Assembly: GCA_963758295.1 (NCBI GenBank)
Contig: CAVWUU010000004.1
Location: 800,001-864,000, forward strand
DNA: 64,000 nucleotides
Source: Candidatus Eremiobacteria bacterium
GTDB taxonomy: Bacteria > Vulcanimicrobiota > Vulcanimicrobiia > Vulcanimicrobiales > Vulcanimicrobiaceae
Direction: 5' to 3'
Numbering within the stretch: the stretch's first letter is position 1; each line of letters starts with the position of its first letter. Positions 3,001 to 6,000 of this stretch are shown one piece after another. The position numbers were made by a program.

Positions 3001-6000
3001 GAGAATCAAGGCATCTTTATTAGCGGCGCTCGTGGTTGTGCCGCAGATCGTCGCACCGGCTCACGCGCTCGCGCAGATGAATAACAGCCGCAACGGCTGC
3101 ATGAATCAATGGCTCTTCAACGGAGTTTGGCGCGCGCAGGTAACCAAAGTCGAGCCGGTCCTCAATAACGGCAAACAAGTCGGCTGGCAAGTTACGCAAT
3201 CGTGGCGTAACGGCACCGGCCGTGAACTGGCGCCGGCAGATTCTTCTTTACTTCCGGAGCAGCTGGTGCTCGGCAGCGGCGCAAAACTAGAGGCCGAGGG
3301 CCACAATCAGGAAGGCCTCGCATTCAATACGTTAGCGCCCTCAGGGCAATTTGCGTACACCCAGGTATTCTACGGCAACAATATGACGGTGGATCCGAAC
3401 GATAAGCCGAAGGCGGTCGAAGTCGCGTTTGATAACAAAATCGTTTCCACGTCGAACAAACCGCACTTCACATCGAATCAGTATAACTTCGATTACAATC
3501 TAACGTGCGTCGCGAGCGGCGCGGTCGCAGCTGCGCAAGGCGGCTCGACGCAATTGGCGGCCCAGAGCGGCTGCATGAATCAATGGATGTCCAACGGCGT
3601 CTGGAAGATGCGCGTAACGAAACTCACGCCGTATCCCGCCGGCGGAAAACCTGAAGATCAAAACGGCTGGCTCGTAACGCAGACCTGGGTCAATGTCACG
3701 AATATGAAAGTCTATCCGGGCGGTTTACCCGACGTCCCGAACCGCGTGGCGCCGACCAACGTAAGCGATGAATTTCTCGCGACGAAGAACGGCAATAACG
3801 CTTCGTCGTTTAATACCGTTGGCGGCTTTCATATCGGGCAGCGTAACGTTCCATTCGCACCCAACACTGCTTACACGTTCGATCAGCTCATCGCATGGAA
3901 CCCGTTCGACCGGACCGATATGCCGATTCGCTTACTCGTGACGTTCGATAGTGCGACACAGAGGAAAGTAAAGCTCGCTATTCCGGTGCCGCAATATCAC
4001 AGCCCCGCGAATTTCCGCATAGACCTAACTTGCGGAGACGGCGCCGTCGCCGTGGAGCCGCAGCAAAATGAAGCGGCGCAACGGCCGAATACGCAGCAGC
4101 AGCCAACGCCATCCGTTGCAGCGGCGCAAACGCCGTCGAGCAACAAGAACGGACTGACAGTCGATCCCTGCGCGATGCTGAGCCAGTCCGACGTGGCGTC
4201 GGCGCTTGGAGTGGGCGCGGCGACGGTTGGCAAGCCACAACATACGTCGCCGAACGAGTGTGCGTGGGCGGTGGCCTCGCATGCCGGCGCACCGGCACAA
4301 GACGTCGTTCTGGTCGCACAATCCGTTCCCACTACGGCCGCCTGTCATGGTTTGTCTTGCCTTAACGCGGTGGCCTCGGCGTTGGGATCGCATGTCGTGC
4401 CGCAATTGCCCGGCGCGTTCGCCGAGGCGTTCAACGATGCACAGATGATCTCCGGACTCGGAGACAAGGCGTCTTGGAAAGACGGAAAGCTTACGGTTCT
4501 CCGAGCGGACATGGCTTTCCAACTTCTCGTTCATGGAACGTCGTCGCGGGGGCTCGCTACATCCGAAACACTGGCACGCGACGTTCTGCTTCACGTGACG
4601 CCCTAAGGCAACAGTGACGTGTTGCCGGCTTGGCCGCCTGAATCGCGTTCATCACTATGCGCAACGCACGATCGCAGCGAATCTCGCATGACTCCAACGT
4701 ATCGCGGATTAAATCGCGGGAACGCCGGGGCGGCCGATAGCGCCCTTTGCGCTGCCCAGGAGCCTCGTGGAGCTTGTTGAAGCGATGGAGCCGTCCCCAG
4801 ACACGCCGACGTGGCTGAGTGGTTGAAGGCACGACACTTGTAATGTCGCTCGAAAGACACCGCCGGTTCGAATCCGGCCGTCGGCTACGATACTTTTCTA
4901 GGCGTAACCCCAGTTCGCATGAACCCTATAGGAGGCTTTATGCGCATCGGTTCGCAGGAACATAGAGAGCTCTTCTGCCGTTCGTTTATCCATACGCATG
5001 AGCCGTGCCGGCCCAAAGATCTCCCTGGCCTAAACTCGATAAAGCGTCCATCGAAGTTCTTCAATCGATTCACGGGCCTCTAGAGTGAAATTGCGCGGAA
5101 AGGTTGCAATTCTTACCGGTGCCGCCGGCGGAATCGGATCGGCCGCTGCACGCGCCTTCGCCCGCGAAGGCGTCATTACGATCCTCACCGATCTGCCCGC
5201 CGCAGCTCCGGTGCTCGATGCGCTGGTAGAAGACATCGCGTCAAACGGCGCAACGGCGCTCGCTATCCCTGCGGATATTACGAGCCGCCCGCAAATCGAC
5301 CGCCTCGTTGCGGAAGCGATAAGCCGCTTCGGCCGCATCGACATTCTGGTGAACGTCGCCGGAATCGGATCTGCGCCTTCGCTTTCCGAGAGCACCGACG
5401 AAGAACTGGAACGCGTCGTTCTCGTCAATCTGCTCGGAAGCGCGCGAACCATTCATGCGGTGCTGCCCATTATGAGAGCGCATCGCAGCGGCGCGATCAT
5501 CAACATCGGTTCGATCGCCAGTCAAAGCGGGGTGATGGGCATTTATTCCGCATCGAAATTCGGGTTGCGTGGACTCAGCGATAGCGTGCGCCGTGAGGTG
5601 CGCAGTTGCGGCATCGGCGTCACGCTGATCGATCCGGGGTTCGTCGCGACGCCGATGAACCCGGCGATGCAAAACCTTCCGAAGCCGGAGATCGTGGCCA
5701 ACGCCATCGTCAAAGCCGTCATTTCGCCGCGGCGTCATGTCATCGTGCCGGCCTCGTATCGTCTTCCGGTTTTTCTTGCCAAGGCTTTCCCAGCGTTCAC
5801 CGACCTTGTCTTTGGTAACGCCAGAATCCAAGACCGCCTTAATAGAGACGCCAGGGCAGCGAGAGCCACGGCAAAAACTCCGCAGCCATGACAGGCCGCG
5901 TCCTAATCACGGGAGCGTCCACGGGCATCGGCGCGGCGGCGACCACGGCGCTTGCCAAGGACGGTTGGCGAGTTTACGCGGGAGTGCGAAACGCGCATGA

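Follow-up and report, generated by a model that had tools for sequence, protein, structure and literature searches.

The window, i.e. the whole stretch of 64,000 nucleotides analysed here, at 800001-864000 of contig C4, holds a single tRNA gene, which ARAGORN calls as tRNA-Thr(tgt) with its anticodon at position 35. It lies on the plus strand at 4805-4886 and is matched from end to end by the tRNA family RF00005 of Rfam (58.3 bits, E 1.7e-11). An earlier note on this DNA had described it as an 82-nt tRNA-Thr(UGU) of class II shape, and ARAGORN, Rfam and a reading of the sequence all bear this description out. The gene lacks an encoded CCA end, which is present in 31 of the 45 tRNA calls of the genome, and consists of the following parts:

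4805..4886, plus strand: tRNA-Thr(UGU) gene, 82 nt, CCA not encoded (ARAGORN and Rfam RF00005)
4805..4811, plus strand: 5' strand of the acceptor stem (G1, C2, C3...), pairing with 4879-4885 (sequence reading)
4812..4813, plus strand: U8 and G9, with G9 in place of the A9 of canonical family forms (sequence and relatives)
4814..4830, plus strand: D-arm of the type-II kind, 17 nt, with a 3-bp stem (4814-4816 with 4828-4830) (consensus fold)
4832..4848, plus strand: anticodon arm with a 5-bp stem, loop CUUGUAA, UGU at 4839-4841 and A37 (ARAGORN and sequence)
4849..4861, plus strand: variable region, 13 nt (positions 44-48 inclusive) (sequence reading)
4850..4857, plus strand: variable mini-hairpin in which U-A and C-G close a GAAA loop; behind it a tail of 4 nt runs to C48 (sequence, RNAalifold)
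4862..4878, plus strand: ordinary T-arm with a 5-bp stem and loop UUCGAAU (sequence, Rfam, family alignment)
4879..4886, plus strand: 3' strand of the acceptor stem (4879-4885) and discriminator U73 (4886) (sequence reading)

Class II and threonine features of the gene

A 3-bp D-stem, an unpaired 13/22 position and an enlarged D-loop are the marks of a class II core, and the D-arm of this gene has all three: it contains just three Watson–Crick or GU pairs, G13 faces A22, and GG lies within an 11-nt loop. The variable region, which had previously been put at 11 nt because the last two C had been omitted, comes to 13 nt on recounting; this compares with 10-24 nt for type II and 10 or more nt for class II tRNAs as given in the accessible parts of PMC12360207 and PMC7609411, respectively. 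A stem–loop in it is marginal in this copy, with only 2 bp, as the earlier note had read, plus the GAAA loop; for the structural type it is borne out by the 3-5 bp of relatives. The >10-nt variable region, the 3-bp D-stem and the unpaired 13/22 position are features shared with bacterial tRNA-Tyr, tRNA-Ser and tRNA-Leu, as is, for the type as a whole, the capped hairpin; the gene differs from them by having the anticodon, acceptor stem and discriminator of a threonine tRNA and an arm at the short end of their range. The NGU anticodon of tRNA-Thr (G35, U36) is present as UGU, the acceptor/T layout is 7/5, and U73 together with G1-C72 and C2-G71 stands in place of the G73 or A73 and the acceptor stem of Ser or Leu identity. 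By these features the gene lies outside Leu, Ser, bacterial Tyr and Sec, the only class II families named in the accessible text of reviews (including PMC7609411).

The canonical class I tRNA-Thr(UGU) of the thrU type has the same acceptor stem, T-arm, anticodon loop and decoding task and, in many relatives, the same locus. The two differ in that positions 8-26, i.e. the D-arm, and the variable region are replaced, with G9 for A9, a D-stem of three rather than four pairs and a variable region of 13 rather than 5 nt. Promoter-like sites were absent from our scan, which is uninformative for this phylum, and the sole terminator-like site that it returned corresponds to the T-arm in minus-strand reading.

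Covariation and distribution of long forms

The minimum-free-energy fold of the single sequence is not a cloverleaf, and with a z-score of -1.23 it is equalled by 25 of 200 shuffles; it is the comparison with relatives that gives the fold its support. The consensus cloverleaf of 16 long forms from the family Vulcanimicrobiaceae has 96.5% of its cells paired and double changes in 10 of 23 pairs, a result matched by none of 500 shuffles. The acceptor stem is invariant in all seven pairs and all 16 sequences, and double compensatory changes occur at three of the five pairs of the anticodon stem. The D-stem is paired throughout, with double changes at two of its three pairs within the family and at all three across phyla, and positions 13/22 are G.A, A.C, C.C or U.U in the long forms aligned, never a Watson–Crick pair. 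RNAalifold predicts both pairs of the variable region, the second being UA in nine and CG in five of 15 distinct family rows. In a cross-phylum set of 58 matches (49 distinct rows), an alignment that was itself fitted to the model, 97.9% of cells are paired and double changes affect 20 of the 23 pairs, and the variable stem alone reaches 88.5% with 10-22 double changes per pair.

Long forms with variable stems of 3-5 bp, which the earlier note had reported from relatives, were found again, with lengths of 82-90 nt. Overall, their variable arms run from 11 to about 22 nt, mostly with 2-3 bp and at most with the 5 bp seen in genomes G183, G164 and G215. Acceptor stem and T-arm are identical to those that relatives have in their canonical Thr(UGU) and Thr(CGU) genes, and between genomes G220 and G310 the Thr(UGU) genes differ in the D-arm and variable region only. 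Intermediates also occur, some of which (G117, G143, G157, G165 and G138) combine G9 and a 3-bp D-stem with a variable region of only 5-8 nt.

That the long arm is a conserved trait of this lineage, as had been proposed, is only partly right and lacks support in that wording: about half of the family's Thr(UGU) genes do have it, but it is scattered within the family and not confined to it. A pattern search matched 303 of 348 family genomes, nearly always exactly once, and the 149 Thr(UGU) genes listed comprise 76 long, six intermediate and 67 canonical forms, with long and short forms mixed within genera. On a tree of ThrRS, i.e. of a single protein with rows picked half long and half short, the trait changes 14 times over 41 tips, which equals the shuffled mean of 14.0; at least seven of these changes are forced by well-supported branches, and on this tree an origin in one clade of the family is rejected. 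Differential loss of ancestral paralogues fares no better, as only one (G060) of five genomes with two pattern matches has a long and a short form, and the short Thr(UGU) of G060 sits in a 16-tRNA array of mobile look. A match to nt 1-29 in G067 was discarded, as ARAGORN does not call a tRNA at that place.

In many relatives, Thr(UGU) adjoins a Tyr-Gly-Thr(GGU) cluster, 100-700 nt from tRNA-Tyr. At the same loci, its mean pairwise identity is 0.75-0.76, compared with 0.94 for Gly-UCC and 0.88 for both Tyr and Thr-GGU. Within a genus, the flanks of paired loci are syntenic and 68-84% identical, and Thr(UGU) itself falls outside these alignments or is represented by its 3' end only.

Beyond the family, a scan with matches at 117 or more loci shows long-arm Thr(UGU) genes under at least five other phylum labels, including Spirosoma isolates (among them Spirosoma fluviale DSM 29961), Kiritimatiellota and Acetobacteraceae. 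A looser pattern, applied to three Spirosoma isolates, recovered no Thr(UGU) other than the long form. A pattern scan matched 11 of 151 genomes of the Spirosoma family (10 long, one canonical), but it is too strict for the canonical genes of this family and therefore uninformative on patchiness there. Among the matches listed for phage contigs, 110 of 118 are long-arm Thr(UGU) (101 distinct sequences), a figure that, as the pattern targeted long forms alone, does not give the proportion of long arms in phage Thr(UGU) as a whole. A long form is also present in the cultured Rhodococcus phage Trina, which has two adjacent Thr(tgt) genes of 72 and 81 nt; BLAST of the long forms against cultured-phage records, which is too insensitive here, returned Trina and otherwise weak partial matches only. 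The structural type is thus widespread, comprising about half of the family, several other phyla and many phages. Full-text searching of the literature found no description of a long-arm tRNA-Thr. To regard the arm as a tolerated add-on leaves two observations unexplained, namely the high variability of Thr(UGU) relative to its neighbour tRNAs and the frequency of the long-arm design in phage contigs.

Decoding, charging and the extra arm

Threonine tRNAs are represented among the 45 tRNA genes found by ARAGORN in the whole genome by Thr-GGU and the long-arm Thr-UGU only, as stated before. The earlier note was also right in naming ACG the commonest threonine codon: in 2,100 crude ORFs it makes up 58.2% of 46,433 Thr codons, and with ACA (6.3%) it accounts for 64%. 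Its further claim that this tRNA is the only reader of ACA and ACG holds in that it is the sole UGU tRNA found in the 82%-complete genome, but is uncertain for ACG. Because three closed or near-closed relatives (G024, G075 and G073) carry a canonical Thr-CGU beside the long form, a Thr-CGU gene is likely to lie in the missing part of this genome as well.

Whether these codons mean threonine can be read from thrS, the one gene used for this purpose, in 41 genomes. In 15 columns with Thr conserved to at least 90%, the share of ACR is 63% in long-form and 56% in short-form genomes, and the genome studied here has ACG at 12 of the 15. In long-form genomes, ACR is aligned to Thr in 79% and to Ser in 3.8% of comparisons, and ACY in 75% and 5.1%, respectively. 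ACG and ACA thus occupy conserved threonine positions in thrS, and therefore still mean threonine.

The acceptor pairs that confer threonine identity in E. coli are G1-C72 and C2-G71, both of which are present in this tRNA. Class II synthetases such as ThrRS approach the tRNA from the variable-loop side, and the genome has a single ThrRS gene. No indel or residue of ThrRS follows the tRNA form when 21 long-form are compared with 20 short-form genomes, the best frequency difference being 0.42. Loss of the N-terminal TGS domain as a permissive change can be dismissed, as all 41 family ThrRS begin at the editing domain, whether the tRNA is long or short; outside the family, two long-form Spirosoma genomes and a long-form Acetobacteraceae MAG retain the TGS domain, which a Kiritimatiellia MAG lacks. 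Because no change in ThrRS goes with the arm and the length of the arm varies, it probably does not serve as an identity element but is a tolerated architecture. The accessible part of PMC9976931 locates threonine identity in acceptor pairs and anticodon.

We therefore consider it likely that the gene encodes a functional Thr(UGU) with a type-II core, which is charged by ThrRS in spite of a tolerated arm and belongs to a structural type of wide distribution. Such a tRNA would read ACA and, via wobble, also ACG; we infer that it is expressed and that it is the single ThrRS which most likely charges it, recognizing G1-C72, C2-G71 and the anticodon bases G35 and U36. Its core would have been rebuilt in the type-II way: next to G9, a 3-bp D-stem with 13/22 unpaired and an enlarged D-loop, it has a variable region of 13 nt, within which a small GNRA-capped hairpin would form. 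D-arm and variable arm would then act as one coupled module, which can be swapped for a class I core while acceptor, anticodon and T-arms remain threonine-like. The simplest reading of the extra arm would be that of a tolerated alternative architecture.

Alternative readings and significance

One rival reading has the long arm recognized by another synthetase. If SerRS, TyrRS or LeuRS charged this tRNA, ACA and ACG would be ambiguous or reassigned, as with nematode nev-tRNAs and with allo-tRNAs. SerRS is described in accessible parts of PMC9976931 and PMC7609411 as reading shape and long arm rather than the anticodon, and the 5-bp variable stems of G183, G164 and G215 could suit this. However, the discriminator is U73, neither G73 nor A73, the acceptor/T layout is 7/5, and C2-G71 is listed in the accessible text of PMC9976931 as a determinant against SerRS, i.e. 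as an antideterminant in E. coli tRNA-Leu. Moreover, the Thr positions at which ACR stands are conserved, just 3.8% of comparisons showing Ser, and as ACR makes up 64% of Thr codons, mistranslation would hit the whole proteome. We therefore regard such mischarging as very improbable. By the accessible accounts, nev-tRNAs (PMC3333845) and allo-tRNAs (PMC5389517) also combine a class II body with the anticodon of a class I amino acid, but unlike Thr(UGU) they retain Leu or Ser identity and charging, and allo-tRNAs have an acceptor/T layout of 8/4 or 9/3, whereas Thr(UGU) has 7/5, U73 and C2-G71, and its codons mean threonine. A further comparable case is the type I tRNA-Leu of Streptomyces coelicolor, for which the accessible part of PMC6614811 reports an isoacceptor family in both classes with one synthetase for both, though in the opposite direction, i.e. 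a class I member of a class II family, and for another amino acid. Hardly credible is a decaying or non-functional copy, with the true Thr(UGU) among the 18% of the genome that the assembly misses: the 82% completeness, the variable hairpin of merely 2 bp and the lack of a promoter-like site in a scan that is uninformative for this phylum would allow it, but all helices are intact and covarying, and family genomes match the pattern nearly always once (303 of 348). In the closed one-contig relatives G006, G015, G024 and G075 the query matched nothing else that resembles Thr(UGU), and other Thr-like matches, where checked (G024 and G075), are Thr-CGU.

Two further proposals concern how the long form arose and why it persists. 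The gene may be a chimera, formed when a canonical Thr(UGU) had its D-arm and its variable region overwritten by gene conversion from a class II tRNA, the donor being either a tRNA-Ser or the tRNA-Tyr next to it in the Thr-Tyr-Gly-Thr cluster; this would explain the origin only, is compatible with a functional, ThrRS-charged tRNA and seems to us possible but doubtful. The BLAST matches to tRNA-Tyr genes of 74-77% over nt 7-75, already reported, were reproduced, and the D-arm does resemble tRNA-Tyr, as had been claimed. Yet ‘Tyr-like’ is too specific, because over positions 7-27 the Tyr, Ser-CGA and Ser-GGA tRNAs of the same genome are all three mismatches away (3/21), the nearest class I tRNA being six away, and this leaves Tyr and Ser indistinguishable as donors. 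The proximity of tRNA-Tyr (100-700 nt) in many relatives, the confinement of the G220/G310 differences to the two segments and a common arm layout (one unpaired base, stem, GNRA loop, stem, then a tail of 3 nt with C as its last base) speak for conversion. On the other hand, the anticodon arm that separates the two altered segments is unchanged, and one conversion tract would therefore be insufficient; intermediate forms exist (see above); and the neighbouring tRNA-Tyr is rejected as a donor common to all lineages, as none lies within 1.5 kb of the Spirosoma, Kiritimatiellia and Acetobacteraceae loci. Rather unlikely, in our view, is that Thr(UGU) exists in two interchangeable architectures of which the type-II one, also charged by ThrRS, is a mobile, conflict-driven allele that escapes OLD-like nucleases or toxins of defence or abortive infection systems such as P2-OLD. 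Nucleases aimed at this tRNA would select for forms they cannot grip; phages would bring such forms along as substitutes, and at the thrU locus some bacteria would either have fixed one or still be swapping it. According to the accessible part of PMC12445682, P2-OLD kills chiefly by cleaving host tRNA-Thr(UGU), i.e. this very isoacceptor, and a phage Thr(UGU) rescues. The 110 of 118 phage-contig matches listed, the 72-nt and 81-nt genes together in Trina, the scatter on the ThrRS tree, the failure of the tRNA, except for its 3' end, to align between syntenic flanks and its being less conserved than any other tRNA in the cluster are all consistent with such a conflict. The nuclease-resistant phage tRNA-Thr(UGU) has the same anticodon and decoding role and shows that phages carry variants of this isoacceptor, but the resistance described in that part of PMC12445682 sits in the anticodon stem (CNG changes, a shorter stem), and neither a long variable arm nor the word ‘variable’ occurs there. 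Long forms are not depleted of the CNG motif targeted by P2-OLD, CNG/CNG being found in 18 of 50 long and 12 of 22 short family forms and in 46 of 101 viral long forms; the copy in the window has G28 and C30 and hence no CNG/CNG, with an anticodon stem of the normal 5 bp. The abundance in phage contigs may tie long-arm Thr(UGU) to the recently shown targeting of tRNA-Thr(UGU) by P2-OLD. If the conflict-driven scenario were true, the class II tRNAs of bacteria would gain a fourth family, and this would be the first arms race with tRNA class itself as the variable trait.

Textbooks and reviews assign the bacterial long arm to Leu, Ser, Tyr and Sec and regard it as part of synthetase recognition. 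In Leu, Ser and Tyr tRNAs the arm is fixed, with an identity role in Ser, whereas in Thr(UGU) it is gained or lost among close relatives. Annotation pipelines label the long-arm genes as tRNA-Thr without remark, and surveys of arm-length classes or of pseudogenes will misfile them. As cultured Spirosoma isolates and a Rhodococcus phage are among the carriers, charging, structure and nuclease sensitivity are directly testable. A Thr(UGU) with a class II core as the sole reader of ACA would mean that the divide between class I and class II is not bound to amino-acid identity, and that ThrRS, a class IIa synthetase, tolerates the arm with no visible adaptation. With the two forms swapping between close relatives and the rest of the molecule staying constant, the family thus offers a natural experiment on which pairs of D-arm and variable arm are viable.

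A threonine tRNA with a type II core

The window holds a single tRNA, a tRNA-Thr(tgt) with its anticodon at position 35, which was called by ARAGORN and matches the Rfam tRNA model end to end with 58.3 bits. Its parts, as read from the sequence, are as follows.

4805–4886, + strand: tRNA-Thr(UGU) gene
Within it, + strand: acceptor stem, 7 bp, with G1-C72 and C2-G71; discriminator U73
Within it, + strand: U8 and G9
Within it, + strand: D-arm, 17 nt, in which three pairs are possible and no more, with G13 opposite A22
Within it, + strand: anticodon stem, ordinary 5 bp, with loop CUUGUAA
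4849–4861, + strand: variable region, 13 nt, containing a GAAA loop closed by U-A and C-G and, after it, four unpaired bases
Within it, + strand: T-arm, ordinary

CCA is not encoded in the gene. Two tandem short-chain dehydrogenase genes (5085–5891 and 5888–6715, both +) lie directly downstream, and a 535-aa open reading frame upstream (2999–4606) matched no family above threshold. The earlier note's description of a tRNA-Thr(UGU) with Thr-type ends and an odd D-arm agrees with the sequence, and so does its enlarged variable region, but the 11 nt given for the latter leave out the last two C. At 13 nt the region has type II length, defined in passages of two papers as a variable loop of 10–24 nt (PMC12360207) or of at least 10 nt (PMC7609411); according to a passage in one of them, the variable loop of E. 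coli tRNA-Leu(UAG) is 8 nucleotides longer than that of yeast tRNA-Phe.

A 21-base stretch around the D-arm has three mismatches to each of three tRNAs of the genome studied (G000), namely tRNA-Tyr, Ser-CGA and Ser-GGA, 4–5 to its other two Ser tRNAs and at least six to every class I tRNA of this genome. The core is thus of the Ser/Tyr kind, and the label 'Tyr-like', correct as to tRNA-Tyr, is too specific, since two Ser tRNAs are equally near. Minimum free energy folding of the single sequence did not yield the cloverleaf (z -1.23), so that the type II shape has to be decided by comparative data. Sixteen long forms of the family, i.e. tRNA-Thr(UGU) genes with an enlarged variable region, agree with a cloverleaf whose D-stem has 3 bp and whose variable region is a hairpin: 96.5% of cells are paired and 10 of 23 pairs carry compensatory double changes, a result that none of 500 shuffles matched. 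RNAalifold, unaided, returns the same structure. A cross-phylum alignment of 58 matches (49 distinct rows), which was fitted to our own covariance model and therefore favours the structure, is 97.9% paired, with double changes in 20/23 pairs, including all three of the variable stem; none of its rows has a Watson-Crick pair at 13/22. As judged from these sequence comparisons, the long form is a cloverleaf with a type II core, backed by covariation.

Threonine identity, decoding and the synthetase

The assembly of G000 (6 contigs, 3.03 Mb, 82% complete) contains 45 tRNA genes by ARAGORN, and Thr-GGU and Thr-UGU are its only threonine tRNAs, as the earlier note had it. Thr-GGU lies within a Tyr-Gly-Thr cluster, 15.4 kb from Thr-UGU, which is the sole tRNA with a UGU anticodon found; a tRNA-Sec (tca) of 94 nt is located at C1:541859-541952. 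A crude collection of 2,100 open reading frames has 46,433 Thr codons, 58.2% of them ACG and 6.3% ACA. A canonical Thr-CGU of 76–77 nt is also present in three relatives that carry the long form and whose genomes are closed or nearly so (G024, G075 and G073), and G000 may likewise own one, its assembly being incomplete; in that case the long tRNA would be the sole ACA reader and would share ACG.

Codon meaning was assessed in a single gene, thrS, which encodes threonyl-tRNA synthetase (ThrRS), in 41 family genomes. At the 15 columns with Thr in at least 90% of these sequences, the ACA/ACG share is 63% in long-form and 56% in short-form genomes, the latter having a canonical class I tRNA with a variable region of 4–5 nt; G000 uses ACG at 12 of the 15. 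ACA/ACG codons of long-form genomes stand opposite Thr in 79% and opposite Ser in 3.8% of comparisons with other genomes, the corresponding values for ACC/ACU being 75% and 5.1%. Thus, nothing in this gene points to reassigned or ambiguous codons. The long tRNA shares its acceptor stem and T-arm with the canonical Thr(UGU) and Thr(CGU) of relatives. Parts of one paper (PMC9976931) assign threonine identity to acceptor pairs and anticodon bases and serine identity chiefly to the long arm, and count C2-G71 of E. coli tRNA-Leu among the antideterminants that act against SerRS.

G000 has one ThrRS, with an editing domain, class II core and anticodon-binding domain:

C3:255885-257615, - strand: ThrRS gene (locus L095), 577 aa

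Orthologues with 63–88% identity are present in 141 of 150 family genomes. In all 41 family proteins analysed (G000 and 40 orthologues), from long-form and short-form genomes alike, the N-terminal TGS (N1) domain is absent and the sequence starts just before the editing domain; no indel or residue among them splits long-form from short-form genomes. Elsewhere, the TGS domain is kept in long-form carriers, namely two Spirosoma genomes and an Acetobacteraceae metagenome-assembled genome (MAG), and missing in a Kiritimatiellia MAG. In the sequences compared, neither a ThrRS change nor TGS loss accompanies the arm. Since neither tracks the arm, ThrRS appears from these sequences to tolerate the arm rather than to recognize it.

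Distribution in and beyond the Vulcanimicrobiaceae

The 16 long forms served to build a covariance model, which was run on 150 family genomes; with the fetched loci re-called by ARAGORN, long forms of 82–86 nt were verified in 39 genomes. A search pattern covering the gene's 3' half matched in 303 of 348 family genomes; among the 150 matches listed (160 more exist), one is spurious, and the 149 Thr(UGU) genes have variable regions of at least 12 nt in 76 cases, 6–8 nt in six and 4–5 nt in 67. Both forms occur within genera, with 58 long, one intermediate and 28 short genes in g71 (n=87) and 12 long and six short in g63 (n=18) among the matches listed. On a maximum-likelihood tree of a single protein, ThrRS, from 41 genomes picked to be about half long and half short, tRNA form needs 14 changes, at least seven of them forced by well-supported branches, and the mean for shuffled labels is 14.0. 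Long and short forms are thus mixed across the family, and the long arm is common but not the conserved trait of the lineage that had been proposed. These counts include genomes flagged as unpublished (long: G100, G134, G120, G192; short: G019, G008, G109; further in the tallies: G021, G051, G041, G142, G373, G407), with G100 in the long-form alignment and G019 in the ThrRS set, and no conclusion rests on them alone.

The arms of family long forms range from 11 to ~22 nt, with stems of 2–5 bp and mostly GNRA loops, and intermediates with G9 and a 3-bp D-stem but a variable region of 5–8 nt occur in G117, G143, G157, G165 and G138. In same-genus pairs the flanks are syntenic at 68–84% identity, and the tRNA lies outside the alignments or is represented by its 3' end alone. 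The most telling pair, G220 (long) and G310 (short), match exactly in acceptor stem, anticodon arm and T-arm, and differences are confined to positions 8–26 and the variable region. Mean pairwise identity at shared loci is 0.75–0.76 for Thr(UGU), 0.88 for tRNA-Tyr (23 loci), 0.94 for tRNA-Gly(UCC) (21 loci) and 0.88 for Thr-GGU (10 loci). One relative (G060) with a long Thr(UGU) next to its Tyr-Gly-Thr cluster also carries 16 tRNA genes in 3 kb (L138, G060:C52:25854-28894: His, Trp, Ser, Phe, Ala, Asn, four Leu, Tyr, Met, two Pro, Thr-UGU and Lys), which looks like a mobile or phage-derived array. Another (L086, G215:C47:8503-9992) has a Thr(UGU) of 90 nt, with 5 bp in its variable stem and C at the position of U33, a base near-universal in tRNAs.

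A second family of the same order has the long form in one of five genomes (G154); other high covariance-model matches in the phylum (150 genomes, 21 families) were tRNA-Ser(UGA) and tRNA-Leu(UAA). A scan of species genomes, using a pattern that requires a gap equal to 11–24 variable nucleotides, gave at least 117 loci, which were typed by ARAGORN and record titles. Among the 117 matches listed are 54 bacterial Thr(UGU) genes whose variable region is long, distributed as follows.

Long-form Thr(UGU) genes among the matches listed
Vulcanimicrobiota/'Eremiobacteraeota'-type records: 27
Elsewhere: 27, including
Kiritimatiellota: 9, plus one Verrucomicrobiota-labelled and one unlabelled look-alike
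Spirosoma/Spirosomataceae: 7, including S. fluviale DSM 29961, S. arboris HMF4905 and S. utsteinense LMG 31447
Acetobacteraceae/Rhodospirillaceae: 3, with A73
Uncultured bacteria: 2
Planctomycetota, Betaproteobacteria, Actinomycetes and Woeseiaceae: 1 each, the last with a Leu-type body

The other 63 gave no tRNA by ARAGORN (35) or were archaeal, probably intron-containing tRNAs, six tRNA-Tyr or other calls. The bacterial long forms have in common an acceptor stem of Thr type and a D-stem of 3 bp; in their variable region, 1–2 unpaired bases precede a 3-bp stem capped by a tetraloop, and a 3–4-nt tail ending in C follows. A looser pattern found no second Thr(UGU) gene in three Spirosoma isolates. 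In S. arboris the 3' half of the long gene occurs twice on one contig, 77 kb apart (L272, L275), with a whole tRNA by ARAGORN only at the first; such a layout is what the integration of a genomic island or prophage into the tRNA gene leaves behind. The tRNA of the Woeseiaceae MAG (L149) combines a UGU anticodon with a class II body of Leu type, having a Leu-like D-arm and A73; it could be charged with Leu and read ACA, in the manner of nev-tRNAs. A long Thr(UGU) in a MAG labelled Candidatus Acidiferrales (Acidobacteriota; L211) has the acceptor stem, T-arm and D-arm type of g71-type Vulcanimicrobiaceae and may reflect mis-binning or transfer.

In phage contigs the same pattern, built for long forms, hit a Thr(tgt) of 79–92 nt by ARAGORN in 110 of the 118 matches listed (101 distinct sequences). 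Most of 80 that were read lie inside their contigs, some beside other tRNA genes, and ~13 within 1.5 kb of a contig end. The cultured Rhodococcus phage Trina (L406, NC_042040.1 96672-96839) has adjacent tRNA-Thr(tgt) genes of 72 nt and 81 nt, both annotated as plain tRNA-Thr; the variable region of the latter is 11 nt, unpaired and A/C-rich, with the identical 11 letters in a Vulcanimicrobiota MAG tRNA (L225). This hairpin-less kind is a second sort of long variable region, frequent among the phage-contig matches listed.

Known systems, purpose and origin

Open full text in PubMed Central and bioRxiv yielded no description of a long-arm or class II tRNA-Thr, and no paper there contains such literal strings as 'class II tRNAThr' or 'tRNAThr with a long'; subscription papers or database notes could hold one. 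Passages of three papers list class II tRNAs as Ser, Leu and bacterial Tyr (PMC7609411, PMC9976931, PMC4033280), the first also treating tRNA-Sec as such. Nev-tRNAs and allo-tRNAs resemble the long Thr(UGU) in having class II bodies with foreign anticodons, but theirs are charged with Leu or Ser; another near precedent, from part of one paper, is the type I tRNA-Leu of Streptomyces (PMC6614811).

A less probable reading gives the long form a purpose of its own, i.e. escape from nucleases that target Thr(UGU). Its abundance in phage contigs (110/118 matches listed) and the rapid turnover of Thr(UGU) at a syntenic locus would fit this idea, as would a 2025 study in which the defence nuclease P2-OLD kills by cleaving host tRNA-Thr(UGU) and phage Thr(UGU) tRNAs rescue (PMC12445682). 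However, the CNG/CNG motif, the paired anticodon-stem motif whose alteration is tied there to P2-OLD resistance, is present in 18/50 long versus 12/22 short family forms and in 46/101 viral long forms, which lends no support. The word 'variable' nowhere occurs in that paper. The simpler and more probable reading is a tolerated alternative core, for which the lack of any ThrRS change with the arm and the widely varying arm lengths speak. As to origin, gene conversion with a Tyr or Ser gene as donor may have supplied the D-arm/variable-arm module, or the module may have arisen stepwise through intermediate forms such as those present in the family.

We infer that the tRNA-Thr(UGU) of G000 is expressed, CCA-added and charged by ThrRS: once transcribed and provided with CCA, it would be loaded with threonine via acceptor stem and anticodon. 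In its rebuilt core, a short hairpin would take the place of the 5-nt variable loop, with the 3-bp D-stem, unpaired 13/22 and G9 as accompanying adjustments, as in Ser, Tyr and Leu tRNAs, and the charged tRNA would decode ACA and ACG.
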